From an uncultured Candidatus Saccharibacteria bacterium (lineage in GTDB: Bacteria > Patescibacteriota > Minisyncoccia > UBA6257 > 1-14-0-10-44-23), in NCBI GenBank assembly GCA_964549935.1, contig CAZJVT010000002.1, positions 121,336 through 185,335 on the forward strand: DNA of 64,000 nt. The letters run 5' to 3'. The notes under the pieces were generated by a model, which saw only the letters and a program-made list of their open reading frames with translations, was not told the origin of the DNA and ran no database searches. Position 1 is the stretch's first letter. Every line of letters starts with the position of its first letter. Positions 1 to 47,908 of this stretch are shown piece after piece. The position numbers and the translations under genes were made by a program.

Positions 1-217
1 TTTCCGGGGCAATAACAGTGACCATATCTTTCGAGCAAAGATCACATTTGCGTTTATAAAGCGTTCGCTCATTACGAAACATGATCCGCCTCTGAAATCG
101 ACAATCCGGGCAAAACGTCGGAGCCGGTACGGACATCTTCTCGTAGAACGCAAAGTCCTCCGGCTCAACGGTAAAGTTCTGCTTACAGTTTTGGCAGGTT
201 TTTGTCTCTGGCTGCAT
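1..217 (-). CDS. Partial Cys-rich zinc-ribbon protein (N-terminal 72 aa only; gene runs off the window start). Paralog of the N-terminus of 8643..10370.
   Basis: Reverse complement of 1-217 reads ATG(217)...MQPETKTCQNCKQNFTVEPEDFAFYEKMSVPAPTFCPDCRFQRRIMFRNER... The motif C-x2-C...F.V...D..FY.K..VP.PT.CP.CR.QRR matches 8643..10370 (CRQCSSTFKVEADDIEWYKKFKVPPPTLCPNCRMQRR). It is absent from the ORF track because it is truncated. Confidence 0.45.
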   Translation of the reverse strand, partial: MQPETKTCQNCKQNFTVEPEDFAFYEKMSVPAPTFCPDCRFQRRIMFRNERTLYKRKCDLCSKDMVTVIAPE

Positions 218-4633: not shown

Positions 4634-4676
4634 CGACACCAAATCAAAACAGCCCGCGAGGGCTGTTTTGATTTAC

Positions 4677-6530
4677 TTACTTTCTACGTTGCTGTGGCGG
4701 CGGGCCGCTTCTCTGCCCCGGAGCCGGAGGTCGCGGTTGCTGACGCGGAGCTCCTGCCAGATTTTGTCGCGGCGGCTGATTCTCTGAAGGTTTCTGCTGC
4801 TGTGCGGGCCTTGGCGCTTGTGGCTGTAGTGGTTTTTCTAAAGGTTTAGCTGCTGAAGCAACATCGCGGCGTTCGTCCTCACGACGCTTTTCTTTGACCG
4901 GTTTGACCTCTGCCTTTTCAACATCAAATTCGATACCCATCGCCGCCAAAACGTCCTGGGCTCTCGCCTGCTTCTCGGCCTTCGGTTGCTTAATAAGTTT
5001 CGGCGCTTTAATCTCGCCCTTCTTAACTTTTTCGTAACAATCCGAACAGTAAACGGGACGATTTGGATTTGGCTTAAATGGTGTCTTAGCTTCTTTGCCG
5101 CAGACTGAACAGACAGCAACGAACAGCTCGTCTCCTTGTTTATTAATGCCCACCATCTCCGGACTCTGCTTAGAAGCCTCCTCCGGGGTTTCGGCCAAAC
5201 TCGAACTCCAACGCGTGATTTCAGTTTCAACCTGGAGTTGTGATTTGGTGTATAGGCGACGCGAGTGCTCGATGATAACGGCCTCACCCGGCGCGTCTAC
5301 GTTGGCCTTAAACGGTATAAGCGTATGCGCAGAAAATGGTCGGGCGTTCATACCGGCGACCATCAAGCGCACATAGAAGTGATAGTTCGGCAGGTTGACG
5401 ATATCCGGGATCATAAACTCCGGCTCAAGCTCCGGCTCTAAAAACTCTGCATCCGTAGCACCAACGCGGAAAATGACGAGCGTACCGCAGTTACCAAAAA
5501 CTGCGTCTCGCACCTTGGTCGACATATCTCCACTGACGAGCTGACCGATATACTGGTGCGCCACCGTCAAATTTAATCGATACTTACGAGCCTCAGAGAG
5601 CACGCCGGCAAATGAATCGGTGGCAAAGTTTTGGAACTCGTCGACGTAGAGGAAGAAATCCTTACGCTCATTTTCTGGAATACGCACGCGCTCCATCGCC
5701 GCCAGCTGAATCTTCGTGATGAGCATTGCGCCAAGCAGCGCCGAGTTGTCTTCTCCGATACGTCCCTTTGAAACGTTCACAAGGAAAATCTTGCGCTCGT
5801 TCATCATCTTGAAAATATCTATCGTGCTGTGAGTCTGACCGACGGTGTTACGGACGAGTCCGGTCGACAAAAACTGACCGACTTTGTTTTGAATCGGAGC
5901 GATTGCCTCACTGCGGAACTTGTCCTGCCATTCCTCGTACTCACTAATCCAAAACGCCCGAACGACGGGGTCTTTGACGTTAGAAACAATTTTTTGGCGG
6001 TAGTCTTTGTCTACCAGCAGACGCGGAATACCCAGCAGCGTCGTACCCGGCGTCTCAAGCAGCGCAAGCACGGCGTTGTTCATAATGTATTCCATACGAG
6101 CACTCCACACGTTACTCCAAATCTTGGTAAAAATACCCATCAGACCTGAAGCGACTAAGTGTTTGTACTTCGGGTCGGGCAGCTCGAGCACGTTAAAGCC
6201 CATTGGGAATTCCGTATCCGCCGGGTTAAAGTACACGACGTCGTCGAGGCGTTCCTTTGGAATCATTTTTAAAATACCTTCAACGAGCTCACCGTGCGGG
6301 TCAACGACACAAAGTCCGTCCCCGTTCATCACGTCCTGCGAGATGATATTGTGCAGCATCGAGGACTTGCCGGTACCGGTCTTACCGATAACGTACATGT
6401 GCTGACGACGGTCTTTGCGCGCAATGCCAAAAAGCCGCTCCTCGCCGCGGTAGTCAGTTTTGCCAAAATAAACAACGTCGCTCCCGACCGCATGGCCGGC
6501 GTTGCCGCCTCTCTGAATCGTTTCGGACAT
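4677..6530 (-). CDS. Type IV coupling protein (VirD4/TraG/TrwB)-like or HerA/FtsK-like P-loop ATPase. Carries a C-terminal YacG-like zinc ribbon and a Pro/Gln-rich tail.
   Basis: Walker A VIGKTGTGKS, DPHGEL, DEFQNF and AHQ motifs. C-terminus CSVCGKEAKTPFKPNPNRPVYCSDCYEK. Start placed at MSETIQ (6530). The track ORF extends to 6599 across an ACGT heptamer array at 6541-6570. Confidence 0.7.
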   Translation of the reverse strand: MSETIQRGGNAGHAVGSDVVYFGKTDYRGEERLFGIARKDRRQHMYVIGKTGTGKSSMLHNIISQDVMNGDGLCVVDPHGELVEGILKMIPKERLDDVVYFNPADTEFPMGFNVLELPDPKYKHLVASGLMGIFTKIWSNVWSARMEYIMNNAVLALLETPGTTLLGIPRLLVDKDYRQKIVSNVKDPVVRAFWISEYEEWQDKFRSEAIAPIQNKVGQFLSTGLVRNTVGQTHSTIDIFKMMNERKIFLVNVSKGRIGEDNSALLGAMLITKIQLAAMERVRIPENERKDFFLYVDEFQNFATDSFAGVLSEARKYRLNLTVAHQYIGQLVSGDMSTKVRDAVFGNCGTLVIFRVGATDAEFLEPELEPEFMIPDIVNLPNYHFYVRLMVAGMNARPFSAHTLIPFKANVDAPGEAVIIEHSRRLYTKSQLQVETEITRWSSSLAETPEEASKQSPEMVGINKQGDELFVAVCSVCGKEAKTPFKPNPNRPVYCSDCYEKVKKGEIKAPKLIKQPKAEKQARAQDVLAAMGIEFDVEKAEVKPVKEKRREDERRDVASAAKPLEKPLQPQAPRPAQQQKPSENQPPRQNLAGAPRQQPRPPAPGQRSGPPPQQRRK

Positions 6531-6618
6531 ATGAATAGTATAACGTAAAACGTAAAGCGTGTAACGTTTTCGCCAATTGCGAAGCAAGGCGTTAATCACT
6601 CAAAATGCGAAGTAAAAT

Positions 6619-6969
6619 CTAGAGCCTCCGTATGATTCCCCAAAGCATCTTGCCTATTCTATCGGCCTTCGCGAGAAGACGCTGATAATCCTCAGCAGAG
6701 ATATATTTTTGTCGTAAAGCAAAATCAATAATATATACTGACTCGCGCAACGAGCCGTAGGCTATTTCTGCAAAATTTTTCAGCACCGCCTTCCGCTGCC
6801 GAGCATAACCCTCGATATAGTTTAAGGCGACAGAAAGGGCAGATCTACGAAGCTGAGAAGTTACGCCAAATAATTCTTCTTTTGGGAATGACCGGGTAAC
6901 GCGATATATGTCGTCAACATATTCGTCTAACAATTTTTGAAATTGTTCGTGAAAATTCTCTTCCGCCAT
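6619..6969 (-). CDS. Four-helix-bundle protein (23S rRNA intervening-sequence protein family)
   Basis: ELFGVTSQLRRSALSVALNYIEGY... pattern of TIGR02436-like proteins. Confidence 0.7.
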   Translation of the reverse strand: MAEENFHEQFQKLLDEYVDDIYRVTRSFPKEELFGVTSQLRRSALSVALNYIEGYARQRKAVLKNFAEIAYGSLRESVYIIDFALRQKYISAEDYQRLLAKADRIGKMLWGIIRRL

Positions 6970-6989
6970 ATCTTTTGCATTCGCTAGTT

Positions 6990-7034
6990 TACGATCAACG
7001 CTTCACGATCTACGTTCTACGCTTCACGATCTAG
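6990..7034. repeat. 7-nt-periodic array (CGATCAA/CGCTTCA/CGATCTA/CGTTCTA...) filling the pepA to 4HB-gene spacer
   Basis: acgatcaacgcttcacgatctacgttctacgcttcacgatctag. It overlaps the pepA stop codon. Confidence 0.65.
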
Positions 7035-8581
7035 CCCAAGGTTTCACGTACTTCCGCCCACTTCATCGCAAGCGTCACAAAGTAGCGTACGCCAAAACCG
7101 GCTGCGCCCTTGCTAAGCTGCTCCTCCTCCGGGTTAGTCGTCATGCGCGGGGCCATATCGATGTGGGCAAAGTTAGCACCCTTAGCGAAGTGAGATAAAA
7201 ACGCTGCACCGTGCGAAGCGCCACCCCAACGAGTGTTAGTACGATCAGTATTGATGACGTCCGCCAAATTACCTTCAACGTCCTTTTCAAACTCTTCAGT
7301 CAGCGGCAGCGGCCAGACGCGGTCGTCACACTCATCACCTATTTTTTCAAGCGCATCCTGGAGTTTTTTATTATTTTTTACAAACAGTCCCGAAAAACGC
7401 GTACCAAGTGCAACCATCGCGGCACCGGTCAAAGTCGCCAGCGTCACGATGAGCTCCGGCTTCTTTGTCTTTGCGTACTCAATAGCGTCGGCGAGAATCA
7501 CGCGGCCCTCGGCGTCAGTGTTACCAATTTCGATTGTCTTGCCACCGTAAGCCTTCACGATGTCTCCTTGGCGATAACTGAAACCACTGACCATGTTTTC
7601 GACGGCTGGGATTAAGCCGATTATGTTAATCGGAATCTTAAGCGCAGCAATAGCTTTAATCGCGTAAATGACCGCGGCACCGCCCGACATATCCATGTGC
7701 ATCTCCGCCATCGAGGAGCCCGGCTTTAAGTTGAGCCCGCCCGAATCAAACGTTACGCCCTTACCGATAAATGCGATCGGGCGCTCCGTCTTTTTACCGC
7801 CGCTATACTCCATAATCACCAGACAGGGCTTACTAGCCGAACCCTGACCGACAGCCAAGATTGCATTCATACCCTCCTGTTTCAAACGTTTCTCATCAAA
7901 AACTGTGACTTTAATGGAACCATTCCCGCCTTTGGCGGGACCTGCGGCGTTCGTGACAGTACGCGCAGCCTCGGCCATTCCCTCCGGCTTTAAGTCGCTC
8001 GGCGGGAAGTTCGAAAGCGTACGGCATTCATTCAAACTCTCAGCCATTATCTCGCCGACTTTAACCATCTCGGAACACTTCTTGGCCTCATGATGCGTTG
8101 CGAGCATAACCGTCTCGACACGCTTCCAGCCGTCTGCCGGCGGCGTCTTAAACTGCTCACTGAAGTCGTAATGGGCGTAAAGCGCGTTCCCGGAGACAAG
8201 CGCACACATCCGCTCGGCGTTAACATTGTTACGCTCAAAGTCATCTACGTAGATAGCGGCGACTTTAAAACCCTCCACCTTGGCCGTGCGGATAAAACGA
8301 CGCGCTAAAAGCACGAGCTTCTTCTCCGTAAAATCATTCTCGATCGCGACAAAAGCAAAAGCCGGAATATTATTGAGACGAATGAGCTTGCTCTCGCCCG
8401 CTTTACGCTGACGGCTAGCGGCATAGTTTTGAAGTAGCAGCTGGTCAGCCTTAGAAAGCAGAGAAAAAAGTTCGCCCCAGACCTCTGGCTTCCCTTTGGA
8501 ATCAAGCCAAACCGGCAGTAAAATCACATCGACGTGTTTAAGCGAGGCAGCGGTCGGCTTTGTTTCAATAGTAAATTTCAT
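7031..8581 (-). CDS. pepA: Leucyl aminopeptidase (M17 family)
   Basis: M17 signature NTDAEGRVILADAI; typical N- and C-domain layout. Confidence 0.85.
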   Translation of the reverse strand: MKFTIETKPTAASLKHVDVILLPVWLDSKGKPEVWGELFSLLSKADQLLLQNYAASRQRKAGESKLIRLNNIPAFAFVAIENDFTEKKLVLLARRFIRTAKVEGFKVAAIYVDDFERNNVNAERMCALVSGNALYAHYDFSEQFKTPPADGWKRVETVMLATHHEAKKCSEMVKVGEIMAESLNECRTLSNFPPSDLKPEGMAEAARTVTNAAGPAKGGNGSIKVTVFDEKRLKQEGMNAILAVGQGSASKPCLVIMEYSGGKKTERPIAFIGKGVTFDSGGLNLKPGSSMAEMHMDMSGGAAVIYAIKAIAALKIPINIIGLIPAVENMVSGFSYRQGDIVKAYGGKTIEIGNTDAEGRVILADAIEYAKTKKPELIVTLATLTGAAMVALGTRFSGLFVKNNKKLQDALEKIGDECDDRVWPLPLTEEFEKDVEGNLADVINTDRTNTRWGGASHGAAFLSHFAKGANFAHIDMAPRMTTNPEEEQLSKGAAGFGVRYFVTLAMKWAEVRETLG

Positions 8582-8642
8582 ACGCGTTTTAAAATTAGGA
8601 TAGTATTTCCTAGCTTACTCGCTTTCATTCTGAATTGCAAAA

Positions 8643-10370
8643 TTACAGTACCTCCTGCTGGTAACAGGCTTCGCAGTAGACTTTAAGGTTCCTGGCCGGA
8701 TCCCAGCCACTTTGCGTTTGCTTACCACAGAGACTACAAGATGTGACCCAGAGCTTGTAAGGTCGCTGCAATTCAAAACGAGCCCTTACGCGCTCTAAGG
8801 GATGCACTGTTGGCAGAGGCAGCTTTTTAGCACGATAAAAATCAAACTCAAATTGGGTCAGCCTAAATGGCTTACCGGATTGCTCGCAGATCAGTATTTT
8901 TTGCAGAATATCGCTGGGCACATTCGTGATGTCTTTTGGGATCGCCTCTCCACTCAAAACATTTGGCCCCGAAGGTGTGGTAACAATTTCAGCTTCTTCG
9001 TAATGCCAACCATTTGTTTTTATTTGTCCATCGGATAGAGGGAAAACTAGATTCGCATTTGAATCTTTGTAGGCGAAAGGATTTTCGGTAAGCGGAAAAA
9101 ATTCGCCGTACTCCCCGCGAGCGAGCATCGCTGTTTTTAGATCATCAACCAGCCTCCAGTATTCACTTTCTTCGTACTGCTTATTAAAAATACAAAACTT
9201 CTTATTTTTTAAAGCAATGCAGCCAAAAACATACTCGCAATTATTACATTCAGTGGAGTACTCTACATCATTTGAAACACGCACCATAACAGAAAATTTT
9301 GCGTTCTGGCATTTTGTTACCCCGGATGACTCATAAGCCTGGGATGAACCGCTCGAACCAAAAACATCCATCATCGTGTCGATGTTGTCCACATGCTGAA
9401 CGTACTTTAAGTCCTCTCCATTCACAATCTGGAAACAGTTTTTGCAGTTCTTTGTATGCCGCAATGTATTACCGGACGAGTTCTCGGTATATAAAGCGTC
9501 AACTGCCTTATGGATTGCTTTTTTGCATAACTCGCCGAAACGTTGTTCGTACTCCCGCAAAACATCTCTATCTCCTGTGTTGATTTCAGCCATCCTCTTT
9601 TGATACTCCTCTTTGGTCAGCTGTTCATTGAAAAAGCAATATTTTTTGTTACGCAAGTTAGTGCAACCAAAACAATTTGTGCAATTTTTGCAATCAAAAA
9701 GAAACCAGCTGTCTACGCAACTGATAGAGTCAGTGCAGAAAAAACAATTATATGACTGCTCAACAAGAGTGCACTCATAGCAGTTATCGCTCTCGAGGAG
9801 CCAGTTTGTATCAATTGAATTTTTTGAGCGAATTGGAATATAGCTGTATTGAATGTCCTCTGATTCGTAAGGAATCGAAACGTAATAGCAATTCTTTGCC
9901 TGCACTCCCGAAACTACATATTCACAATTAACGCTTTTTGGATCTTTACTAAGCGCTTGGCGTGGTGCCCGCTTACTAAGCGCGCTCCATTGTTCAAAAA
10001 ATGGAGCTTGCGGATCGAGTGGTTGGCCATACTCTGCCCCTTCCCAGCCGTCACCGTAATAGAAGGGGTCATCGAAAACAACTGCGGGGTTTTTAGCAGA
10101 ATAACAGGCCAGCATGCTTTCACTGTGGCCGGGCGCACTACATGGTCGACGATAAAACAGCGGAAGGAAGCTTACGCGATACCCCAGCCGCCGCTGCATG
10201 CGACAATTCGGACACAGTGTTGGCGGCGGCACTTTAAATTTCTTGTACCACTCAATGTCGTCAGCCTCAACTTTAAAAGTCGAAGAACACTGTCGACACC
10301 TGCGCTCGTGCGGCGCAAGCTCGCCAAGGATTTTTTTTATCGCTGCATCAAACTTCGGCGTTTTAGACAT
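8643..10370 (-). CDS. Large Cys-rich multi-zinc-ribbon protein with internal duplications. Function unknown.
   Basis: N-terminal ribbon C-x2-C...CP-x-C-R-x-QRR. Internal repeats NCxNCFGCTNLRNKKYCFFNEQ and ECNNCEYVFGCIALKNKKFCIFNKQ. C-terminal ribbon CSLCGKQTQSGWDPARNLKVYCEACYQQ. A paralog fragment lies at 1..217. Confidence 0.6.
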   Translation of the reverse strand: MSKTPKFDAAIKKILGELAPHERRCRQCSSTFKVEADDIEWYKKFKVPPPTLCPNCRMQRRLGYRVSFLPLFYRRPCSAPGHSESMLACYSAKNPAVVFDDPFYYGDGWEGAEYGQPLDPQAPFFEQWSALSKRAPRQALSKDPKSVNCEYVVSGVQAKNCYYVSIPYESEDIQYSYIPIRSKNSIDTNWLLESDNCYECTLVEQSYNCFFCTDSISCVDSWFLFDCKNCTNCFGCTNLRNKKYCFFNEQLTKEEYQKRMAEINTGDRDVLREYEQRFGELCKKAIHKAVDALYTENSSGNTLRHTKNCKNCFQIVNGEDLKYVQHVDNIDTMMDVFGSSGSSQAYESSGVTKCQNAKFSVMVRVSNDVEYSTECNNCEYVFGCIALKNKKFCIFNKQYEESEYWRLVDDLKTAMLARGEYGEFFPLTENPFAYKDSNANLVFPLSDGQIKTNGWHYEEAEIVTTPSGPNVLSGEAIPKDITNVPSDILQKILICEQSGKPFRLTQFEFDFYRAKKLPLPTVHPLERVRARFELQRPYKLWVTSCSLCGKQTQSGWDPARNLKVYCEACYQQEVL

Positions 10371-10422
10371 AGTTACTACTCAAATCTACTCTAGCTACTT
10401 TCTACTGTCTACTAACTACTGC
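10371..10422. repeat. 7-nt-periodic CTACT-type array making up the whole 52-nt spacer between the ATPase stop and the Cys-rich gene start
   Basis: agttact actcaaa tctactc tagctac tttctac tgtctac taactac tg. In mRNA sense this is NNAGTAG x7. Confidence 0.65.
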
Positions 10423-11928
10423 CTAAATCAGCGGCTCCGGGTTCTCCATAACCGGGGCTTGGGCAACACCGCCTTTGCCGCCGGTAATAATCGCCTTTTC
10501 CTGCGCGCTGCGAATGATTGTGGACTCCTCCTCCATAATCAACCTCTTGGCATCGCCAACCGGAATCGTGTACTTGCGGCGACTGGCCTCTACGATGCGG
10601 TCTTTGAAGTTCGCGTGGTTTGGCGGCATCACCTTGAGTGTCTTAGCTGAAAATGGGTCGTAGCTTTCTCCGTTGATCATCTCTTTGATATAAAACTCCT
10701 GCTTGCCCAGGTTGATCATATCTTTAACTTTAAAAATCGGTGCGAACTCGTCTTCAAGTACCACAGCGTCAGCGCCGCCGACACGAAAGGTAATAATCGT
10801 ACCAGTATTACCGAGTACGGCAGAAAGCACCTTTGGCAGCAGCTGGCCCATGTACTGGTGCGCGATCGTCAAACACAAACCGTACTTACGCGCCTCGGAC
10901 ATCAAGTTCTCGAATGTTTCGGTCACCACGTTTTGGAACTCGTCGATATAGAAATAAAAGTCTTTACGGTCACGCTCGTGCATACGCGCACGACTCATAC
11001 CCGCCTGCTTAATCTTCGTCACGAACATCGAACCGAAGAACGAGGAGTTTTCTTCGCCGAGTCGTCCCTTAGAAAGATTGATGAGCACAATCTTCTCCTC
11101 GTTCATCAACTTTTCCAAATCAATCTTGTTGGTTTTTTGTCCGAAAATATTGCGCAACATCGGATCAGACAAAAACTGCCCGAGCTTGTTGACGAGCGGG
11201 ATAATGGCGTCAGTATCAAACTTTTCACTCCAGTCCGCGAATTCAATTGCCCAGAAGCGCTTGACCATGTCGTCCTCGATATACTCGATAACCTTTTGGC
11301 GGTAGTTACGGTCAGTCAACATTGAAATCATGCCGCGCATCGTGGCGTGCGGGTAATCAAGTAAAGCGAGTGTGGTAAAACGAAACACGTGCTCCAGACG
11401 CGGCGTCCAGTTAGCACCGAACTGCTTTTCCATGACTTCGATAAGCCCCTGCGTCAACTGATGCTTAAACGCCGGGTCGACATTGGCGAGCGGATTAAAC
11501 GACGCCGGAAAGTCCATGTCAGACGGATCAATAATACAAACGTCTTCAATGCGTCGCTCCGGAATTGCGGCGAGCACGTCCTCGATGACGTCGCCGTGCG
11601 GATCCATCAAGCAAATGCCTTTGTTGAACTCTACATCCTGACGGATGAGCAACTCGAGTAGCTTTGTTTTACCAACGCCGCTTTTACCAATGATGTATAA
11701 ATGACGACGGCGATCGTCGCGCTTAATACCAAAAACGAACTTTTTCTCTTCCAGTGCAGCGACGTAGTTGGTGCGGCCGAAAAAGTTAATATCTTTCGGG
11801 TCAACTTTACCGAGCATCGGCAAATCGGGCGGCGGCGGTGCGTATTTAACAATCTGTACGCGAGCCGAAATCGGCGGGAGTTGCGCCGGTGTAGCAGCTT
11901 GCTGTGGTTTTACATCGTCTGGAGGCAT
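10423..11928 (-). CDS. Type IV coupling protein (VirD4/TraG)-like P-loop ATPase, paralog of 4677..6530
   Basis: Walker A IIGKSGVGKT, DPHGDV, DEFQNV and AHQ motifs; collinear similarity to 4677..6530. Confidence 0.7.
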   Translation of the reverse strand: MPPDDVKPQQAATPAQLPPISARVQIVKYAPPPPDLPMLGKVDPKDINFFGRTNYVAALEEKKFVFGIKRDDRRRHLYIIGKSGVGKTKLLELLIRQDVEFNKGICLMDPHGDVIEDVLAAIPERRIEDVCIIDPSDMDFPASFNPLANVDPAFKHQLTQGLIEVMEKQFGANWTPRLEHVFRFTTLALLDYPHATMRGMISMLTDRNYRQKVIEYIEDDMVKRFWAIEFADWSEKFDTDAIIPLVNKLGQFLSDPMLRNIFGQKTNKIDLEKLMNEEKIVLINLSKGRLGEENSSFFGSMFVTKIKQAGMSRARMHERDRKDFYFYIDEFQNVVTETFENLMSEARKYGLCLTIAHQYMGQLLPKVLSAVLGNTGTIITFRVGGADAVVLEDEFAPIFKVKDMINLGKQEFYIKEMINGESYDPFSAKTLKVMPPNHANFKDRIVEASRRKYTIPVGDAKRLIMEEESTIIRSAQEKAIITGGKGGVAQAPVMENPEPLI

Positions 11929-12034
11929 ATATAGTGTTCACGAACATACTAACTCACGAATCATACTAACGGCATAGTAAGATTGGAATTTTTTAGTTCG
12001 TATGCTTAGAGTGTTCGCATGTTAGTGATTACTG
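11929..12034. repeat. About 105-bp dispersed MITE-like repeat, copy 1 (second copy at 27066..27170)
   Basis: tatatagtgttcacgaacatactaac...gtatgcttagagtgttcgcatgttagtgattact. The ends are imperfect inverted repeats. It is nearly identical at both termini to 27066..27170. Confidence 0.6.
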
Positions 12035-12760
12035 TTAGAATTCCTTAAGCTCTTTTAAGAAATCTCGGAATGAAACAAGGGCTCGTTCAGCCTGATGACT
12101 GCTCATTTGGAAGCCCGGCGTGTGTGCGAGCTCGTTGCGCAAGCGGTGCGCCTCAAAAACTTTCTCAACTATTTTGCTACCGGTAAAACGAGCTTCGTTT
12201 AATCTGTCGGCAAAGGTCTCCCCTGGCATACCGCGCTGTTTTAGAACATGGTCAACGAGCGCGTCCGCTTCCATCACGGCCCAACGCAGGTTTTCCGGCG
12301 TACCCGTGTTGGCCCGATGCACAATATTAGACCAGTGACGCAGCGTCGCCGGATTGCCGGTCGGAGCATGCCCGCCATGAGCTGGTGCGTGCGCCTCGCC
12401 ATGCGCGCCGCCATGACCTCCGTGGGCATCGTGACCATGCTCGTGCGGCTTCAAGCCAAAGAGTGTCATTCCCTGTTTAAGTGGCCAGACGCGGACAAGT
12501 GCATACATACCCGTAATAATCAGAAGGATATCGAGGATGACAAAAATCGGCGTGATATTTTGCCGCCAAACGATTACAAAAACATCCCAGGCCTGAACCG
12601 CAAAGTCGCTAGCGCTAAAGCCGCTACCGAAGATACCGTGCTGTGTCCCCTCGACGAAGAAGGAAAGCCCGAGGTAGCCAAAAAACAAAGTTACGGCCGC
12701 CCAAACAGCCCAGACCTCTTGTTGGAGCAATTTGTGATGTATGTGGTGTCCGTCGGCCAT
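12035..12760 (-). CDS. Membrane protein with His/Gly-rich linker and a possible C-terminal HEPN-like (R-N-x-x-A-H) domain
   Basis: N-terminal TM helices; HEHGHDAHGGHGGAHGEAHAPAHGGH; C-terminal ...EAHRLRNELAHTPG. Confidence 0.5.
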   Translation of the reverse strand: MADGHHIHHKLLQQEVWAVWAAVTLFFGYLGLSFFVEGTQHGIFGSGFSASDFAVQAWDVFVIVWRQNITPIFVILDILLIITGMYALVRVWPLKQGMTLFGLKPHEHGHDAHGGHGGAHGEAHAPAHGGHAPTGNPATLRHWSNIVHRANTGTPENLRWAVMEADALVDHVLKQRGMPGETFADRLNEARFTGSKIVEKVFEAHRLRNELAHTPGFQMSSHQAERALVSFRDFLKELKEF

Positions 12761-12762
12761 AA

Positions 12763-14079
12763 TTATTTGAATTTATCTAAGACGCTTTCGTCAGCGTAAA
12801 TCGGCAAGCCGGCCGGAGCACCCATCTTACGACTCTCAACACGCTGCGTGAGCGGGCCGGTTGTGACTAAGATTGTCGGCGGGTGGAACAACGTGGCTAA
12901 CACTTCAGAGGTCAGAATATCGCTCCGCGAGCCCCACTTATTAAATGTGTGCCCGGAGAGCCACTGCCCCATCCACTCATGAATACCGAGCTCGCGTTCA
13001 ATCCAGAGGTGTAAATTTCGATTTTTACGTGCACGACGGCGAGTGCGTTTAAAAATAAACGGCGGGTCGAACCACCCCGGCTTGGTGTTCATGCGGTCAT
13101 TAAACACGAGACTGTTTAAGTCAGCTGCATTGTACTGCGCAAACGAACCTTTGATAGCACGTCGCGGCACACGGTCAGAAAAAATCTTACGCGGGGCAAC
13201 ATACAAAATACGGATGTTAGTATCAAACGCCGGCTTACTTAAATTGCGCTCAACGGCTTTTAAAATATCTGTCTGCCCCGGAGACTTTTGCAGAAGTGAC
13301 ATCTTGAGAGTGGCGGCAAGATCTTCCGCTGCTGCCCCGTGCCCCGCTCCTTTTGCCACCTGCGGCGTACGCAATTTTTCAACAATGTGTTCGTACTGAT
13401 GCCCCCAGTTTAAACCAGCAGGCGCAATATTGTACTGAATGCCGACAAACTCCTGCGGCCCGACGGCAGCGAGCGCCTCCATGAACACAGCCATCGGATC
13501 TACCTGATATTCTTCAGTGCTGCTTTCAAACTGCTGGTATGTTTTGATGGGATAGGCGGGATCTTTTGCAAATACGAACTCGTTGGCGTACAGATCCTTA
13601 CCGGCGAGCTCAAGCTCCAAGATATTGTGCGGAATCCACTTCGGCACGTAGTCTTCGGCCTCCACGATTTCTACCTCCGGGTATGTCGCGTACATCGCAC
13701 CTTTAAAAATACTGACGTACTGATCAAATACGCGGGCGTAAAAGTGAATCTCGCCGCCTAAGCTCACGACTTCAAACGTCCACCAAATAGTGATTTCACC
13801 GAGTCCATACTTTTCACCAATGTGGCCGGCCCAGTTACCCATACCGGAGATTGCGTGGAAAAACTGGTCCATACTGCGCGGACTGCGCGTAATTTCACGC
13901 GGCATTTTCATCTCTAAGAATTTGTAATTGAGCGAGACCTCGAAGGTACGATTACGCCAATACACCCACAGCGAGCGGACAACCGGGAACAAGAAAAAGA
14001 AAAGCGCCGCTGGCCAGATAGCCTTCAGAAATGAAATAATAACAGGTAGCGCAGCATCAAGCGCGTTTGAGAACCACAT
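12763..14079 (-). CDS. Hypothetical membrane-anchored protein. Its stop overlaps the start of 12035..12760.
   Basis: N-terminal hydrophobic segments followed by a large soluble domain; 3-nt gap to the downstream gene suggests an operon. Confidence 0.5.
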   Translation of the reverse strand: MWFSNALDAALPVIISFLKAIWPAALFFFLFPVVRSLWVYWRNRTFEVSLNYKFLEMKMPREITRSPRSMDQFFHAISGMGNWAGHIGEKYGLGEITIWWTFEVVSLGGEIHFYARVFDQYVSIFKGAMYATYPEVEIVEAEDYVPKWIPHNILELELAGKDLYANEFVFAKDPAYPIKTYQQFESSTEEYQVDPMAVFMEALAAVGPQEFVGIQYNIAPAGLNWGHQYEHIVEKLRTPQVAKGAGHGAAAEDLAATLKMSLLQKSPGQTDILKAVERNLSKPAFDTNIRILYVAPRKIFSDRVPRRAIKGSFAQYNAADLNSLVFNDRMNTKPGWFDPPFIFKRTRRRARKNRNLHLWIERELGIHEWMGQWLSGHTFNKWGSRSDILTSEVLATLFHPPTILVTTGPLTQRVESRKMGAPAGLPIYADESVLDKFK

Positions 14080-14159: not shown

Positions 14160-15221
14160 TTATTTAGCCATTGCCACGGCGTACTCGCCAGTCGGCATTC
14201 GCTTGAAATACTTTTTGTTCTGGAGGTTAAAGAGAATTGTCGTCTCTTTAAAGATTCGGTGCTTGAGCACTTTGGCGATCAAGTCCTTCGGCTTCATCGG
14301 ACCCTCACTCTGCAAAACGTGGAGCAAGATGTCGCGAATCGTACCGGCTGGAAGCGCATCGTGTTCGCGCAGGCTGTAGATACCGCGGCCAACGAGCAGG
14401 AAACGGCGGTCTTTGATGAGCTCGTTGTGAATAGTCTGGGTGTTAGTCTTGCGGCGTGGGCGCAAACGGCGAATCTCACCGGCGATTTCGTTAAAGTGGA
14501 GCGGCTTGCTCGCCTTTTTGAGAATCAAATAAATCCAGTCGCGAGAAACCTTCGGGCTTACCTCCGGCCACTCGGTCAAACCGAAGTCACCATACAAGTT
14601 GCTTCCGAACTTACGGCTGATATGCAAATAGTGACGAGCAACCTCGGCCTCAAGCTTGTGCAGCTCGCGAACTTCGTGGAAAAACTGTTCGAACTTTTTT
14701 TCGTTGATGGTCTCTCCTTTGCGCTCACGAAGGTGCTTAACCAGGGCGTCCAAAAACTCCTGCGCCTTCTGCTGGTGACCTTCAGAAAGGTGCCAGTGTG
14801 AGTTTAACTCCTCGTCCTCGCGGTGGTACAAAACTTCGCCGGAGATTTCAAGCAAAAAGCGAACCTGGTTGGCGAAGTTGACCGGCAAGTCCTTACCGCC
14901 ATCGGCAAAGTGCTTGAGGTCGGTCAGCAAGTGGTCCTCGCGGCGAACGCCACCGGTCTTTGTAAGCTCGCTGATAGCGTGTTTAACAAGCGCGGCGAGA
15001 TCTGAGCGCTGCATGTGCTTACGGACTTCGTTGATAGCTGAAGATTCAATCTGGCGGATGCGCTCACGGGTAACACCGAACGACTTACCAAGCTCGGCGA
15101 GGGTCTGTTCCTCTCCGGAATCCAGACCGTAACGCTTCGTCAGCACTTTGCGCTGGCGAGCATCAAGACCGGCAAAAAGTTGCTCAATAATCTGGGCTGT
15201 CGTTGGGTTGGTTTGTGTCAT
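14160..15221 (-). CDS. Sigma-70 region-4 domain protein (sigma-factor-like HTH DNA-binding protein)
   Basis: QRKVLTKRYGLDSGEEQTLAELGKSFGVTRERIRQIESSAI, a classic region 4.2 HTH. Confidence 0.6.
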   Translation of the reverse strand: MTQTNPTTAQIIEQLFAGLDARQRKVLTKRYGLDSGEEQTLAELGKSFGVTRERIRQIESSAINEVRKHMQRSDLAALVKHAISELTKTGGVRREDHLLTDLKHFADGGKDLPVNFANQVRFLLEISGEVLYHREDEELNSHWHLSEGHQQKAQEFLDALVKHLRERKGETINEKKFEQFFHEVRELHKLEAEVARHYLHISRKFGSNLYGDFGLTEWPEVSPKVSRDWIYLILKKASKPLHFNEIAGEIRRLRPRRKTNTQTIHNELIKDRRFLLVGRGIYSLREHDALPAGTIRDILLHVLQSEGPMKPKDLIAKVLKHRIFKETTILFNLQNKKYFKRMPTGEYAVAMAK

Positions 15222-16041: not shown

Positions 16042-16071
16042 ATTATATCACACAAATGCCTATTTTGTCAA
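16042..16071 (-). promoter_or_regulatory. Consensus sigma70-type promoter for the deaminase cassette
   Basis: Minus-strand sense TTGACA-18 nt-TATAAT, then about 45 nt of leader with GGAGG before the ATG at 15991. Confidence 0.55.
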
Positions 16072-19363: not shown

Positions 19364-20239
19364 ATGACTGATAATACGCAGAAACAGCAAGGTAAAAATC
19401 CGTTAAAGACCGAGCTGGATGAGTCGCATGCTGCGAGAATCAAAAAGCTCAGGGACCAGGAACCGCAGCTTGCTATATTTCTCCAGAGACACCCTGACGC
19501 TCCCGCTGAACAACGCGAAAAGGATAAAATGGCCATCGCGATAGAAATTACACGCCTGGAGGCGATTCTTGAAGGCGTCGCCCCCTTCGTTTACAAGATT
19601 CGCGGATTGATTCCCGATATGCTTGCAGAGACAAAAATTGCAGCCAGCTATTTCATCTTCGGAAAAATATTGCAGAGTTTACAGGCCATATTCGTACTTG
19701 CGAGAGGTGGTTTCCACTATGAATGCATGGAACTTATCCGCTCTATAACAGAATCAAGTGACTTAATATTTTTATTCATGTCAGGCAATGATGAGTCTGC
19801 CGATTTGAAAAAGTGGTTTTCGGGTGGGATTGTTGCAAACGAAAAGGCCCGATTAGCAATGGAAAAATTCATGAATGAGCAAGCCGCTAAGGCAGGCGTG
19901 ATCTTGCCTGTAGGTCCAATGATGGCCGGCATCTATGGGGGTCTATCAAAATACACCCACATTTCTTACGGCGCCCTCCTTGATTCATACGACCTATATA
20001 AAAAGGATTTTGATTTCGGAAGGCAGGCGGGGCACCACTATACACAGCAAAGCAGTTTGCCGTATACAGCAGATGTACTTAACGCAACGATTGTTGCGCT
20101 CAAATTTTTCTATCACTCGCTAAATGATTCGGCTACTTTCGCAGAGCTAGACGCCGCTCTAAGAAAGATTGCCCCAGAAATGTACGACCCTGAGCGGATT
20201 GAAGAGCTTACCAAGCGCACGCTAGAGAGATTCTCCTAG
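19364..20239 (+). CDS. Hypothetical protein (291 aa)
   Basis: Long ORF with backbone-like composition and no recognised motif; sits between tRNA-Lys and a high-GC cassette. Confidence 0.5.
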   Translation: MTDNTQKQQGKNPLKTELDESHAARIKKLRDQEPQLAIFLQRHPDAPAEQREKDKMAIAIEITRLEAILEGVAPFVYKIRGLIPDMLAETKIAASYFIFGKILQSLQAIFVLARGGFHYECMELIRSITESSDLIFLFMSGNDESADLKKWFSGGIVANEKARLAMEKFMNEQAAKAGVILPVGPMMAGIYGGLSKYTHISYGALLDSYDLYKKDFDFGRQAGHHYTQQSSLPYTADVLNATIVALKFFYHSLNDSATFAELDAALRKIAPEMYDPERIEELTKRTLERFS

Positions 20240-22524: not shown

Positions 22525-23562
22525 TTATTTAATAAGTAATATCTCTTTCGGGCGCGATTCCGAACCGATGCTGATCACGCCGACAGAGAACAAAAGCGTG
22601 TATAGCAAATAGGTCAGGGCTAAAACCGGGAGTTTCACAATGATCAAAATGCTGCGCAGAGAGAAAGCCGCAAGTAAAAGCGCGAGTAGCGCCGCGGGCG
22701 CTCCCAGCCCAAGCGTATTCACCTTATCAAGTCCGAGCTGCAAAATGCGATAAGCATACTCGCCGATCGTTTCGTTTGGAGCGACGGGAATGCCGACCTG
22801 TTCGCCAATACGATCAAGTACGCCCTGTGTCGTGAGCTGCTCGGCTGCGCCTTGTTGGGCCACCGACAAAGCGGCAAACTGCGCCTGATTCAAAAGCTGC
22901 TTACGTACGTATTCACTTACAGCGTCATGCACTTTCGTATTTACCGTTACCGGAAAGTTGAGGGCATAGCTAATTGGCCTTTCCGCTCCTTTAAAAATCA
23001 ATTCGAATGTCGATTGCGGAACACCGCCTGCCGCTTGGTACAGGCCGATAGTAAATACCGCGGCAAAAACGGTAAAGGCTGTAAAAAATGAAGCATCGAA
23101 GGCGCTCGCGTATTTAAAAAACCTAATTTGCATTCCCTCATCAAACGTCGATCGCGCGGCGATGTATCCCCGAACGATGAAGGCGAAAAATAAAGCGGCG
23201 GCGGCAATAAACCAGCCGCTAATACCGACATAGAAAGAGAAAAGGACTGCGGCTGACTGTGCAGCAACGAGGACAATATTCCAAAACCTGCTCACAACTA
23301 ATATGGACTGCATAATCATCAGCGAAGCAAGGCAAACTGCTGCTGCGGCGATAACGCCGGCAGTCCCAAAGTTCGGAATATCTAAAAATCCGCGGATACT
23401 TATGCTAAACCAAATCGCGCAGGCAACGCCCAAAACACCAAAAATGCTTGCGTACAAGAAATCATGATCGACGCCGGCGCTAGCGACTTCAGAACTGATT
23501 TTCTGAGCCCCCTCGACGCTGTCGTCTTGCAGACCGCGCATTCGGATAAGCGGATTTTCCAT
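22525..23562 (-). CDS. Multi-pass membrane protein, hypothetical, lying within the dnaK operon
   Basis: Six or more hydrophobic helices; no recognised motif. Confidence 0.5.
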   Translation of the reverse strand: MENPLIRMRGLQDDSVEGAQKISSEVASAGVDHDFLYASIFGVLGVACAIWFSISIRGFLDIPNFGTAGVIAAAAVCLASLMIMQSILVVSRFWNIVLVAAQSAAVLFSFYVGISGWFIAAAALFFAFIVRGYIAARSTFDEGMQIRFFKYASAFDASFFTAFTVFAAVFTIGLYQAAGGVPQSTFELIFKGAERPISYALNFPVTVNTKVHDAVSEYVRKQLLNQAQFAALSVAQQGAAEQLTTQGVLDRIGEQVGIPVAPNETIGEYAYRILQLGLDKVNTLGLGAPAALLALLLAAFSLRSILIIVKLPVLALTYLLYTLLFSVGVISIGSESRPKEILLIK

Positions 23563-45970: not shown

Positions 45971-46131
45971 GCGCCCTCCAGAGGCGGGCAAGCCTGACGC
46001 GGGGCTTTAGGGATGCAAGACCGTTGAAACACCCTTACCGATTGCGAATACGCAACCGTCGGGTGTGCCCTTACTGCTTAATTATATAAGCCCCTGACGC
46101 GGGGCTTTAGGGATGCAGTAAGGGCAAAACA
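45971..46131. repeat. Composite repeat: U1, U2 (reversed), U1, then a terminator hairpin
   Basis: cgccctccagaggcgggcaagcctgacgcggggctttagggatgcaag...(U2 reversed)...aagcccctgacgcggggctttagggatgcagtaagggcaaaacacg. Confidence 0.6.
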
Positions 46132-46368
46132 CGAAAGGGGCCGAGAGACTGCCACTTTCGTGGTACCTCGAGGCCCCTTCATTGCTTGCCCGGCTCCGCG
46201 CGGGTGTTGTCCCCGCGCGGAGGCCGATATTGTCGCGACGCTAGCAGCGTCGCGGCGGACGGTGGCCGCTCGGCCGCATGTTGGCCGGCGGCTTGCCACG
46301 AGGGTGCTGTGCGCCCCCGTGCTGGTGACCACGCCTGACTGCCGCCACCTTGAAGACCTTGTTGGCCC

Positions 46369-46590
46369 TCACGGCTGCATCCCCATGTAGGGGGCGCGAC
46401 CGACGATCTTGCTCTGGTTCGTCGGCGGCGGGAGTTTCCCGTTCGGCGAGATGAAGCTCTGAGCTCCCTTGTGCCACGCCCCGCCGTGGGGTCGGAGGTC
46501 CGACACCGGCGTCTCATCGAGCACTTGATGGGCCTGTGCCGCCTCGGAACGCCTTGCCCGCGACGATCGCGGACGTCCTTTACTGCTCAT
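46369..46590 (-). CDS. Hypothetical small protein; high-GC cassette gene
   Basis: GGGAGG ribosome-binding site 8 nt before the ATG. Promoter-like TTGATT-16-TATAGT at 46724-46751. Structured leader. The reading frame is uncertain in a very GC-rich region. Confidence 0.35.
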   Translation of the reverse strand: MSSKGRPRSSRARRSEAAQAHQVLDETPVSDLRPHGGAWHKGAQSFISPNGKLPPPTNQSKIVGRAPYMGMQP

Positions 46591-46754
46591 CCGGCGCCTC
46601 CCTGATCGAATCCCTTCCTCGCCATCGACCCCCCAAGGTCGGAGCGGGAGTTTTATCCTCGCCTAAAAGACAAAACTCCAGCTCCGATTCCTAGTGGAAT
46701 GAGTGCGAAAGAAGATTACAGAAACTATACACCTGACGCAATAAAAATCAATTA

Positions 46755-46797
46755 AAGCCCCTGGCCCGCGCTTTAAGGATGCAGCAAGGGCAAAACA
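46755..46797. repeat. U1 repeat module
   Basis: aagcccctggcccgcgctttaaggatgcagcaagggcaaaacac. The terminator hairpin ggggtcgt...acgacccc follows immediately. Confidence 0.5.
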
Positions 46798-46857
46798 CTA
46801 AGGGGTCGTTGACACCTCAGTGTACGACCCCCTGATTGCTCCTCCCTGACCTTGCGG

Positions 46858-47016
46858 TCAAATCTTCGCCAAACGGGCGATGATGTCCTTGTCCTCGGAT
46901 ACTTCGCCGAGGGCCTCCTCCGTTTCTTCTGCGGGCGCCATGATAGTCACCCGCAGCTCGGGGCAGAAGTACCCCGCCGAGCAGACCGGACAGACACGGT
47001 TGTCTTCGTCCATCAT
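46858..47016 (-). CDS. Small zinc-ribbon protein (52 aa), absent from the ORF track
   Basis: Ribosome-binding site GGAAGGAGGG then ATGATG; MMDEDNRVCPVCSAGYFCPELRVTIMAPAEETEEALGEVSEDKDIIARLAKI; TGA stop. A terminator and U1 module lie downstream. Confidence 0.45.
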   Translation of the reverse strand: MMDEDNRVCPVCSAGYFCPELRVTIMAPAEETEEALGEVSEDKDIIARLAKI

Positions 47017-47252
47017 CTTCCCTCCTTCCCGCCCCGCGCGCGAAGCGCGCGGGGCCGTGACTACTGATCAGTACCGCGGTTCGAACCCCGCGAACTTGCG
47101 CTGCGGATCACGCAGCACTTCGTAGATCGCCGGCGGCCCCTTGCGAGGCGGCACGATGACCGGACTTCCGGTGACCGTCTTCGGCGACGAAGCCGGCGAG
47201 ATGGGCTGCCCACCCACCGGCACTCCCTTGAGCGACACTCCGATGGTGCGCT

Positions 47253-47639
47253 TCACGAGCGCACCGTCTGAAAGGTCCGGGTCGCGGTCGTGTCGTCGTC
47301 GCATTCGCCCATTGCGCGGCACTGCTCCACCGCGGCATGGAAACGACTGAGCGCGAGCTTCCGCATCTTCTCGCGATAGGCCTTGGGCGAGACGAGCTGG
47401 TCCGGATCGACTCCGGCCACCGTCTTCTCGTCGTAGAAGACATGCTCGTCTTCCGTAGCGAACTCGACCATGCGCCCCGTGGGACGCGTGAACGGCGTCT
47501 TCCGTTCTTCGAGCACATCGTTCGGCAGATCGGCATCGCCGACCTCGCAGCAGTCGGCCCTTCCGCGGCCGACCAGCGACTCCGAGCCCGGGTCCTTCCC
47601 GCCACCCAGAGTCACTGCCAGAACCAAGAAAATGCTCAT
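47253..47639 (-). CDS. Small secreted protein (signal peptide); high-GC cassette gene
   Basis: GAGGAGG ribosome-binding site 4 nt before the ATG; MSIFLVLAVTLGGG...; promoter TTGACT-17-TATAAC at 47784-47812. Confidence 0.45.
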   Translation of the reverse strand: MSIFLVLAVTLGGGKDPGSESLVGRGRADCCEVGDADLPNDVLEERKTPFTRPTGRMVEFATEDEHVFYDEKTVAGVDPDQLVSPKAYREKMRKLALSRFHAAVEQCRAMGECDDDTTATRTFQTVRS

Positions 47640-47783
47640 CCTGCCTCCTCAATCCCTCTCTTGCCCCCTCGACCGCGTCAGCTCCCCCCGGAGCCAATCA
47701 CAAATCGAGCTTCAGGCGAGAAATCAGAGCTCGTCAAAGCACTGAATTCTCGCCTGAAAATAAAAAGGCACCTACAAAGAACT

Positions 47784-47812
47784 AGAGTGTGTTATACATC
47801 TATTGGTAGAAA
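47784..47812 (-). promoter_or_regulatory. Promoter TTGACT-17-TATAAC for the high-GC cassette. A 12-bp-stem hairpin (47716-47772) follows immediately in the leader.
   Basis: Minus-strand sense TTGACTttttctaccaatagatgTATAAC. Confidence 0.45.
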
Positions 47813-47908
47813 AAGTCAATAGCACTAGAGCCCGAGACTCACGCTAGAAACAGACGCATACCACACTTTCATTGTATGCCCGCTCGCTCAACTACGCAAT
47901 CAAACTTA

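Follow-up and report, generated by a model that had tools for sequence, protein, structure and literature searches.

Much of bacterial diversity belongs to the Patescibacteria, epibionts with tiny genomes, almost all of which carry about two orphan homologues of the type IV secretion coupling protein (T4CP) (PMC12102498). With which partners do these orphan T4CPs work, and what do they move? The question takes a concrete form at one locus in a 64-kb stretch of contig CAZJVT010000002.1 (hereafter the window), where two paralogous T4CP-like ATPases, here called ATP1 and ATP2, are encoded in a co-directional run with two membrane proteins and a cysteine-rich multi-zinc-ribbon protein (the Cys-rich protein, of what we call the Cys family). 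Homologues of the window proteins carry Patescibacteria names, from Paceibacteria or 'Parcubacteria' lineages. The locus links orphan T4CPs to a possibly VirB4-like anchor, a HEPN-like protein and one of the largest paralogous families of Paceibacteria-type lineages, and so offers concrete partners for the question of how Patescibacteria move macromolecules to and from their hosts, for example in host RNA uptake. Orphan T4CPs were already known; what is new here is the module of two ATPases, two membrane proteins and the Cys family, and our literature searches found no account of this module, of the Cys family, of DUF8128/PF26449 or of a link between T4CPs and zinc-ribbon arrays. The features of main concern are as follows.

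12763..14079, minus strand: DUF8128 (PF26449) protein, 438 aa, with an N-terminal transmembrane helix and a cytoplasmic alpha/beta domain
12035..12760, minus strand: membrane-anchored HEPN-like protein, 241 aa, with two hydrophobic segments, an Rx4H motif and a weak HEPN_Swt1 match
10423..11928, minus strand: ATP1, a soluble T4CP (VirD4/TrwB)-like ATPase, 501 aa (Pfam and NCBIfam)
8643..10370, minus strand: Cys-rich multi-zinc-ribbon protein, 575 aa with 31 Cys, a member of a large paralogous family
8655..8756, minus strand: zf_Tbcl_2 treble-clef finger at the C-terminus of the Cys-rich protein (Pfam, borderline)
4677..6530, minus strand: ATP2, the paralogous T4CP-like ATPase, 617 aa (640 aa from an alternative GTG start at 6599)
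5028..5129, minus strand: zf_Tbcl_2 treble-clef finger within ATP2 (51.8 bits)
1..217, minus strand: N-terminus of a second Cys-rich paralogue, downstream of mnmA and leaving the window (tblastn)

Two coupling-protein-like ATPases and their membrane partners

We classified the two ATPases by hidden Markov model (HMM) searches. Both scored above the Pfam gathering thresholds of TrwB_AAD_bind, T4SS-DNA_transf, DUF87 and TraG-D_C: ATP1 reached 33.9 bits for T4SS-DNA_transf (cut-off 20.1), 33.4 for TrwB_AAD_bind (20.5) and 28.3 for TraG-D_C (22), and ATP2 reached 48.2 bits for TrwB_AAD_bind and 26.5 for each of T4SS-DNA_transf and TraG-D_C. The Walker A (GKSGVGKT and GKTGTGKS) and Walker B (DEFQN) motifs are intact. 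The best NCBIfam match was conju_CD1115, at 55.5 bits for ATP1 and 46.8 for ATP2, short of the equivalog cut-off of 250; the TraD models gave at most 45 bits against cut-offs of 366-647. With only 20.8 bits for the VirB4_CagE model, the ATPase domain is by sequence nearer to VirD4 than to VirB4, and TrwB is the closest solved relative. The two proteins share 44% identity over 440 aa (E 1e-135). The initial annotation of this DNA had named two paralogous T4CP-like ATPases, and the searches bear this out, placing both in T4CP families and in one family with each other, not in unrelated ones. It had also called two copies in one transcription unit unusual; about two T4CP-like genes per genome is in fact the norm of the phylum, with 5,713 VirD4-like homologues in 2,918 of 3,035 genomes, that is 96% (PMC12102498). 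Its length of 618 aa for ATP2 needs a small correction: ATG at 6530 is the most likely start and gives 617 aa, while the list of open reading frames (ORFs) and the NCBI record begin at the GTG and give 640 aa.

Judged by their sequences, ATP1 and ATP2 are distinct orthogroups. The window ATP1 shows YAPPPPxLP as an N-terminal motif and EPLI as its C-terminal tail; ATP1-type orthologues carry the same N-terminal motif, end in EP[LMI][IVL] and are 67-79% identical to the window copy, compared to merely 49-58% for SecD in the same loci. ATP2-type proteins are 54-68% identical and are marked by a zinc finger, an LGIEF motif and a variable tail. In the window ATP2, the zf_Tbcl_2 finger is accompanied by an MGIEF motif and then by about 115 aa of basic, low-complexity tail, and residues 470 to 617, which comprise finger and tail, have an isoelectric point (pI) of 9.98. 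At E <= 1e-3 the ATPase family comprises 21,375 clusters, and among its 150 best representatives many are proteins of 700-1,100 aa that combine an N-terminal domain with the ATPase. Matches in Bacillus phages (G gp156, SPO1-like) were distant, limited to the ATPase domain and at most 26% identical, and were uninformative. A homologue on a Sulfitobacter plasmid (38% identity) is a lone gene among transposases and gave no useful context.

A hydrophobicity scan found no transmembrane or other hydrophobic segment in either ATPase, and the N-terminal membrane anchor of T4CPs is thus absent from both. The 438-aa protein of the same run appears to be the detached N-terminal domain, together with the membrane anchor, of a T4CP-like ATPase. 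Precomputed PF26449/DUF8128 annotation covers this protein and, of the 120 homologues listed for it, nearly all, the window assignment being marked 'weak' in one record, and a single transmembrane segment spans residues 13-39. In Peribacteria, DUF8128 and ATPase are fused in proteins of 745-747 aa, and hhalign matches the DUF8128 profile with the N-terminal 310 aa of a 747-aa ATPase (probability 98.8%, E 9e-17); likewise, the family phrog_5156 spans both the DUF8128 protein and the ATPases. Because the two form one polypeptide in Peribacteria, DUF8128 may supply the ATPase anchor in trans. The initial annotation had called the 438-aa product a membrane protein, which holds for its transmembrane helix; the Peribacteria fusion defines it more exactly as a separated ATPase domain.

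The predicted structure of DUF8128 points in the direction of VirB4. We compared an AlphaFold2 (AF2) model of the protein (pLDDT 78.8) with the PDB by Foldseek, and the top 13 matches were all TrwK/VirB4 chains (probability 0.96-1.0, E 1e-4 to 2e-3), but with TM-scores of 0.28-0.34 and a root-mean-square deviation of 9-11 Å. The DUF8128 sequence profile found no match in the PDB. When aligned by hhalign to a VirB4-like protein, DUF8128 gave nothing, and against the fused T4CP of Embleya described below only a linker motif aligned (E 0.035). The likeness to the fold of the VirB4 N-terminal domain is therefore suggestive only, since the TM-scores are low. It agrees with the VirB4/TrwK comparison that N-domain and ATPase are one chain in Peribacteria, whereas a match to the VirB4-like protein at the sequence level is missing. 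The order of transmembrane helix, N-domain and ATPase recalls VirB3-VirB4 fusions.

Fused forms, among them phrog_5156, also occur in monoderm conjugative elements. Embleya plasmid NZ_CP108778 (our locus L164) encodes an 812-aa homologue with N-domain and T4CP in one chain (280205-282643). It falls in the same ATPase subfamily, with 31% identity over 81% of ATP1, and carries before its ATPase an 'ELAxLxHLP...PPxxLP' linker like that at the DUF8128 C-terminus. It differs in the weak similarity of its N-domain (hhalign E 0.035) and in its position within an actinobacterial type IV secretion system (T4SS) and relaxase cluster of TrbL-like, PrgI, VirB4-like, relaxase-like and NlpC/P60 genes, whereas the window genes have no such surroundings. 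This plasmid is typed 'non-mobilizable' despite its VirB4-like gene, PrgI, TrbL-like gene and replication-relaxation family protein. Set against T4CPs at large (VirD4/TrwB/TraD/TraG and the monoderm 'CD1115' VirD4-like proteins), the window ATPases share the Walker motifs, the passing of Pfam cut-offs, conju_CD1115 as best NCBIfam model and TrwB as closest relative. They differ in having no transmembrane domain, in leaving the N-terminal domain to a separate gene, in forming two conserved orthogroups per genome of which ATP1 is unusually conserved, in lying on the chromosome amid housekeeping genes with no relaxase or T4SS genes near, and in an NCBIfam score of 55 where 250 is required.

The second membrane protein, of 241 aa, has two hydrophobic segments and is predicted to be a transmembrane-anchored helical domain. 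The initial annotation had guessed at HEPN, and the guess gains weight from an AH(R/K)xRNxL(V/A)H (Rx4H) motif, AHRLRNELAH in the window, that is near-invariant across 22 homologues, the final H being replaced in two. The match to HEPN_Swt1 stays below the Pfam cut-off (18.5 bits against 27.5, E 0.0025). As in HEPN proteins (Swt1-like and other Rx4-6H RNases), a conserved R-N-x-x-x-H lies in a helical domain of about 120 aa; the protein differs from them in its membrane anchor, its sub-threshold score and its T4CP-like partner, in place of a toxin-antitoxin or CRISPR context. Between the transmembrane segment and the HEPN-like domain lies a His/Gly-rich insert, HEHGHDAHGGHGGAHGEAHAPAHGGH (window 12370-12460, residues ~100-130), which only the window copy has among the 22 aligned homologues and which looks like a metal-binding linker.

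The multi-zinc-ribbon family and its link to ATP1

The Cys-rich protein returned 2,761 database matches, all of about 577 aa and, where the source is named, all from Patescibacteria; the family is chiefly one of Paceibacteria-type lineages, with members in Peribacteria too. We assembled 80 genome loci by a family profile search and searched them with the window proteins (Cys-anchored loci). In these loci the Cys genes stand in tandem and in one direction, in arrays whose size ranges from 2 to at least 10 diverged copies. Two of these loci (L046 and L066) lie on one contig, JALLOO010000001.1 (1-15232 and 21319-34438), and hold eight Cys genes each, that is at least 16 within about 35 kb; if that genome is below 1 Mb, as is typical of the phylum, these genes would amount to several per cent of it. 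The initial annotation had seen a single Cys-rich gene in the unit; the gene is there, and it belongs to a family that is very large, ancient and arranged in tandem arrays. A second N-terminus, which had been placed at 1-217, was recovered by tblastn at 217-74 on the minus strand (44% identity over 48 aa, E 3e-10), and a further 320 aa of this paralogue are seen on a Logan contig. The order mnmA, then Cys gene, recurs in three other loci (L040, L072, L077).

The arrays are old. As many as 95% of Cys copies are closer to a copy in another locus than to any in their own array (median identity 58% versus 42%), and the paralogues form ancient orthogroups, in dozens of subfamilies. Since nearly all copies have their closest relative elsewhere, the arrays are not recent duplications, and a model of recent duplication or antigenic variation was rejected on the same ground.

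Three ribbons are outlined by the conserved Cys columns. The N-terminal ribbon has C25/28/53/56; the penultimate ribbon, at 495/498/523/526, is degenerate in the window protein; the third is the terminal treble clef (545/548/566/569). A further CxxCxxCxxC cluster lies centrally at residues 227-236. This cluster and a looser copy at 375-393 close the two halves of an internally duplicated middle region, and their spacing is as much like that of Fe-S ligand motifs as of zinc sites. Both ends of the window protein are basic (residues 1-70, pI 9.75; 481-575, pI 9.1) around an acidic core, and R57, R61 and R65, beside the first ribbon, are at least 90% conserved in the family. Among 292 full-length Cys proteins, 90% end in CxxC[YFW]xx[ED]xx-COOH and none has a transmembrane or signal-like segment. 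An AF2 model of the window protein (pLDDT 84.8, pTM 0.87) found no significant fold match in the PDB or BFVD, and the family profile picked up only LIM-type zinc-finger noise in the PDB (E >= 0.07). Pfam searches of 26 family members (E <= 0.1) returned zinc-finger families only and, in the window protein, the C-terminal finger only. The possibility, left open by the initial annotation, that this is a known housekeeping protein found no match in Pfam, NCBIfam or the PDB.

The C-terminal finger connects the family to ATP2. The ATP2 finger matched PF23477 (zf_Tbcl_2) with 51.8 bits (cut-off 27) and TIGR04272 with 53.1 bits (cut-off 36); that of the Cys-rich protein was borderline, at 26.9 and 24.8 bits for the same two models, and 17 of the 26 family members matched the finger at E <= 0.1. 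Over 34 aa the two fingers share 41% identity, and the window holds no further motif of this kind. A C-terminal ribbon common to both proteins had been proposed at the outset and is upheld as this PF23477 finger. Its 'YacG-like' label is dropped, as neither protein matches YacG in Pfam or NCBIfam (E <= 0.01), and ATP2 does not end in the ribbon: the finger is internal, with the tail after it. Zinc binding by the CxxC-x17-CxxC/zf_Tbcl_2 domain has been demonstrated in small M. mazei proteins (PMC12704099); here the domain is appended instead to a T4CP-like ATPase, with a clear match, and to a 575-aa multi-ribbon protein, with a borderline one.

To avoid the bias of a Cys-anchored sample, we also collected 80 metagenome loci by the ATPase profile, in 34 of which ATP1 is flanked by at least 4 kb on either side (ATP1-anchored loci). 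For all synteny statistics we used our own simple ORF calls with BLAST labels, and the loci are not phylogenetically independent. A Cys gene was adjacent to ATP1 in 19 of the 34 loci; the count rises to 26 when a distance of up to two genes is allowed and to 28 for a distance of up to 10 kb. ATP2 lay within 10 kb in 24, and the HEPN-like gene directly upstream in 12. All Cys genes in the ATP1-anchored loci (74/74) are on the same strand as ATP1. From the other side, ATPases were found within 10 kb in 28 of the 80 Cys-anchored loci, often bracketing the arrays. Several gene orders occur: sig-DUF8128-HEPN-ATP1-Cys...ATP2-efp, DnaK-ATP2-Cys-ATP1, DUF8128-ATP2-Cys-Cys-ATP1 and, in Peribacteria, arrays beside the fused ATPase. 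The association of ATPases with Cys genes thus survives gene rearrangement, and the neighbourhood, on whose presence in relatives the initial annotation had made its case depend, is conserved.

The ATP1 tail follows the Cys genes. It is present in 21/21 ATP1 proteins of the Cys-anchored loci. In some lineages with a lower-identity ATP1 the order is DUF8128-HEPN-ATP1-ATP2-efp with no Cys gene in the locus, and most of these ATP1 proteins are shorter and tail-less; none of the six loci with a tail-less ATP1 has a Cys gene in the stretch covered. Restricted to loci whose flanks both reach at least 3 kb, the 2x2 table of tail against Cys gene reads 30/3/0/3 (Fisher p = 0.003, uncorrected for phylogeny). 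A search with one tail-less ATP1 (L151) found ordinary Paceibacteria ATP1 proteins as nearest relatives, at about 62% identity, and its lineage placement was uninformative. Because the tail-less loci have no Cys genes, we conclude that DUF8128, HEPN-like protein, ATP1 and ATP2 are the core, and that the Cys arrays are a variable add-on accompanying the ATP1 tail.

Candidate roles of the module

The reading that we prefer, and put forward tentatively, is that of a conserved, non-conjugative Patescibacteria machine made from a split, duplicated and membrane-docked T4CP, with the zinc-ribbon proteins as clients that are passed to a channel elsewhere for export. DUF8128, by its transmembrane helix and predicted VirB4-N-domain-like fold, would tether ATP1 at the cytoplasmic face of the membrane, with the membrane-anchored HEPN-like protein sitting beside it, and ATP2, which brings a zinc finger of its own and a basic tail, presumably disordered, would act as the second, paralogous motor. 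The clients would be the cytoplasmic ~577-aa multi-zinc-ribbon proteins from the adjoining co-directional arrays, which would dock on the ATPases via their conserved termini; candidate contacts are the EP[LM]I tail of ATP1, the shared treble-clef finger and the ...CxxCYxxEV-x C-terminus of the Cys family. Once docked, they would pass to a membrane channel whose genes lie elsewhere, the chromosomal T4SS of Patescibacteria being the most plausible, and would be dedicated secretion substrates or adaptors. We infer that the proteins dock physically, in which direction they are moved and that they use the T4SS channel. In favour of this reading speak the T4CP family assignment, the fusion of DUF8128 with the ATPase, the TrwK/VirB4 fold matches of DUF8128, the co-directional synteny, the tie between ATP1 tail and Cys genes and, in the Cys proteins, the conserved extreme C-terminus and the lack of transmembrane or signal-like segments. 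The phylum-wide survey favours it as well: relaxases are nearly absent, just 148 of the 5,713 T4CP homologues lie near virB4, and exaptation of T4CPs 'cannot be ruled out' according to the authors (PMC12102498). The arrangement has parallels in Bartonella virD4-bepA-G and in the X-Tfe/XVIPCD proteins of Xanthomonas, where virD4-adjacent paralogous T4SS effectors share a C-terminal signal domain. There, too, a coupling-protein gene is flanked by co-directional tandem paralogues with a conserved C-terminal module; the Cys proteins differ in being conserved over their full length, zinc-rich, members of ancient orthogroups and without a recognisable effector domain.

Several observations weigh against export of the Cys proteins. 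No T4SS channel gene is present among the scanned ORFs of the window, and across the phylum T4CP homologues occur in more genomes (2,918) than VirB4 does (2,417), which hints at a T4SS-independent function (PMC12102498). In the Southlakia result, as it is cited there, the t4cp homologue was not essential for epibiotic growth. The full-length conservation and ancient orthogroups of the Cys proteins are unlike typical fast-evolving effectors, and multi-zinc proteins are awkward substrates for a translocon that unfolds its cargo. The conserved HEPN partner is unexplained by protein export, and the zinc finger is present on ATP2 itself as well. The fold match of DUF8128 to VirB4 carries the low TM-scores (0.28-0.34) given above, and the correlation of tail and Cys genes was counted per locus, on small numbers and with no phylogenetic correction.

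A close rival, which we regard as possible though doubtful, is that the module handles nucleic acid. The twin T4CP-like hexamers would be membrane-docked RNA or DNA translocases, perhaps acting on imported host nucleic acid; the HEPN-like protein would cut RNA at the membrane, the ATP2 finger and tail and the basic Cys ribbons would bind nucleic acid, and the Cys proteins would be accessory factors, not cargo. Canonical T4CPs such as TrwB are DNA-dependent ATPases. TrwB being the closest solved relative of ATP1 and ATP2 fits this idea, as do the conserved Rx4H protein encoded next to ATP1, the basic stretches of ATP2 (residues 470-617, pI 9.98) and of the Cys-rich protein (pI 9.75 and 9.1) and its conserved R57, R61 and R65. 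An ATP1 more conserved than SecD, in a family present in 96% of genomes, is what a core physiological role would lead one to expect, and a cultivated Patescibacterium takes up host RNA by a mechanism that is not established (bioRxiv 10.64898/2026.06.21.733656), which also speaks for this rival. It leaves unexplained, however, why there should be dozens of ancient 577-aa paralogues and why Cys genes are absent from lineages with a tail-less ATP1. Moreover, neither Pfam nor the fold search recognised a nucleic-acid-binding domain in the body of the Cys-rich protein, and many HEPN domains are non-catalytic, the match here being below the Pfam cut-off.

Could the locus instead serve anti-phage defence or abortive infection, with a HEPN effector, ATPase motors and the diversified Cys-rich paralogues as sensors? 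Defence systems often contain HEPN domains, the Cys family is enlarged and differs in copy number, the ATPases weakly matched the PADLOC models for mad8 (56.6 and 39.6 bits) and HerA, and the sigma-70 region 4 and HARE-HTH protein encoded upstream weakly matches the defence sigma factor MzaA, within region 4 only. Beyond generic ATPase matches, however, PADLOC found no system-level match, and the Cys, DUF8128 and HEPN-like proteins matched none of its models. The surroundings of the module are housekeeping genes in conserved order (secDF ... efp, mnmA) rather than an island or mobile element, the Cys paralogues are ancient orthogroups and not recent diversifications, and ATP1 is 67-79% identical across lineages in a near-universal family, while defence systems are patchy and fast-diverging. 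On account of this synteny, near-universal presence, conservation and lack of a PADLOC system match we consider defence very improbable, and of the uptake, secretion and defence options of the initial annotation this is the one that has become improbable. At the bottom of our ranking, and just as hard to credit, is inherited gene order without joint function, by which the ATPases, with DUF8128 and the HEPN-like gene, and the Cys genes would be neighbours by descent only. Four loci (L136, L148, L151, L157) do have DUF8128-HEPN-ATP1-ATP2 and no Cys gene, 52 of the 80 Cys-anchored loci have no ATPase within 10 kb, and pepA, CutA and four-helix-bundle genes as passengers show that the region tolerates unrelated genes. 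Nevertheless, adjacency persists through at least three gene orders and beside the fused ATPase of Peribacteria, all 74 Cys genes run with ATP1, ATP2 and the Cys proteins have a zinc-finger module in common, and the ATP1 tail goes with the Cys genes. Persistence through rearrangement, the shared finger and the tail correlation therefore argue against mere synteny.

Wider, and rather unlikely, is the proposal that DUF8128, the membrane-bound HEPN-like protein, ATP1 and ATP2 are the cytoplasmic engine of a Patescibacteria-specific system of macromolecule trafficking at the heart of the epibiotic way of life, either a motor and processor for host nucleic acid or a secretion route for the zinc-ribbon family, and that the ~577-aa proteins are a new fold class. 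The nucleic-acid version, if true, would supply the missing mechanism for the reported feeding on host RNA. In either version the ~577-aa zinc proteins would be clients or adaptors recognised via short conserved termini, and as substrates or adaptors they would form a new class of T4CP client. The module may explain the role of the orphan T4CPs found in nearly all Patescibacteria.

Transcription unit, passengers and neighbouring genes

The remaining features of the locus are these.

14160..15221, minus strand: sigma-70 region 4 and HARE-HTH protein, 353 aa (Pfam)
7031..8581, minus strand: pepA, M17 leucyl aminopeptidase (Peptidase_M17, 365 bits)
6619..6969, minus strand: four-helix-bundle protein, 116 aa, of the 23S rRNA IVP family, Avd-like (23S_rRNA_IVP, 99.9 bits)
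16042..16071, minus strand: sigma-70 consensus promoter-like site (pattern match alone)
4641..4674, no strand: hairpin with a 15-bp stem, putative bidirectional terminator (pattern match alone)

ORFs on the minus strand run head to tail from 15221 down to 4677. The initial annotation had placed every gene correctly and had given gaps of 3 to about 60 nt; our ORF calls give 2-106 nt. A pattern scan found a promoter-like site at 16071-16042 on the minus strand, with 12/12 sigma-70 consensus positions and an extended -10 TG, upstream of a cytidine-deaminase-like gene; it could start the co-directional unit. The hairpin at 4641-4674 separates the convergent ATP2 and efp genes and is likely a bidirectional terminator. 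Together the two would enclose a unit of about 11.4 kb, within which the scan found weak terminator-like patterns only, nearly all intragenic. These patterns are compatible with one long transcription unit but are no proof of it.

Two genes of this unit had been counted as parts of the operon. Both pepA and the four-helix-bundle gene are present, but each occurs in only 1 of the 80 Cys-anchored loci (the latter in L029), and they are passengers, not core. In closer relatives pepA recurs within or beside Cys arrays (L083, L086, L091, L104, L144, L061); because of this recurrence, its position is inherited in the sub-lineage. We considered a diversity-generating retroelement for the four-helix-bundle gene and rejected it: bAvd scored 39.6 bits (cut-off 40) and DivGenRetAVD 30.7 (cut-off 80), and there was no reverse transcriptase among the scanned window genes, repeats not being part of the search.

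A small CutA-like gene of about 102 aa, so judged by eye, is the immediate neighbour of ATP1-type ATPase genes and of Cys arrays in some twelve loci (for example L005:9631-9945, L010:9102-9410, L012, L013, L034, L082, L088, L117, L126, L135, L139, L147) and is not at this place in the window. The presence of a metal-related gene beside zinc-rich proteins may or may not be meaningful. Upstream, the block secD-secF-sig-DUF8128 is kept in L005, L010, L012, L013, L024, L034 and many of L083-L157; the sigma-region-4/HARE-HTH protein encoded in it may regulate the module or may be simply syntenic.

Other scanned genes of the window are housekeeping genes: DnaK/J, CysRS, DnaB, Mur ligase, penicillin-binding protein, MraW, SMC, RNase III and DnaE. 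Among the scanned window genes, which took in the 20 largest remaining ORFs, we found no T4SS channel, relaxase or mobile-element gene, and in the related loci examined no T4SS or relaxase gene was recognised. Positions 46000-48000 stand out by a GC content of 60%, compared to about 50% elsewhere, with several overlapping frames open; tandem repeats, Rfam families and tRNAs are all absent there. The uncharacterised genes of the window include those for a DUF5677 protein (19364-20239, plus strand), a DUF6629 protein (54962-55588, minus strand) and two proteins of 345 aa (22525-23562, minus strand) and 662 aa (56301-58289, minus strand) that have no Pfam match.

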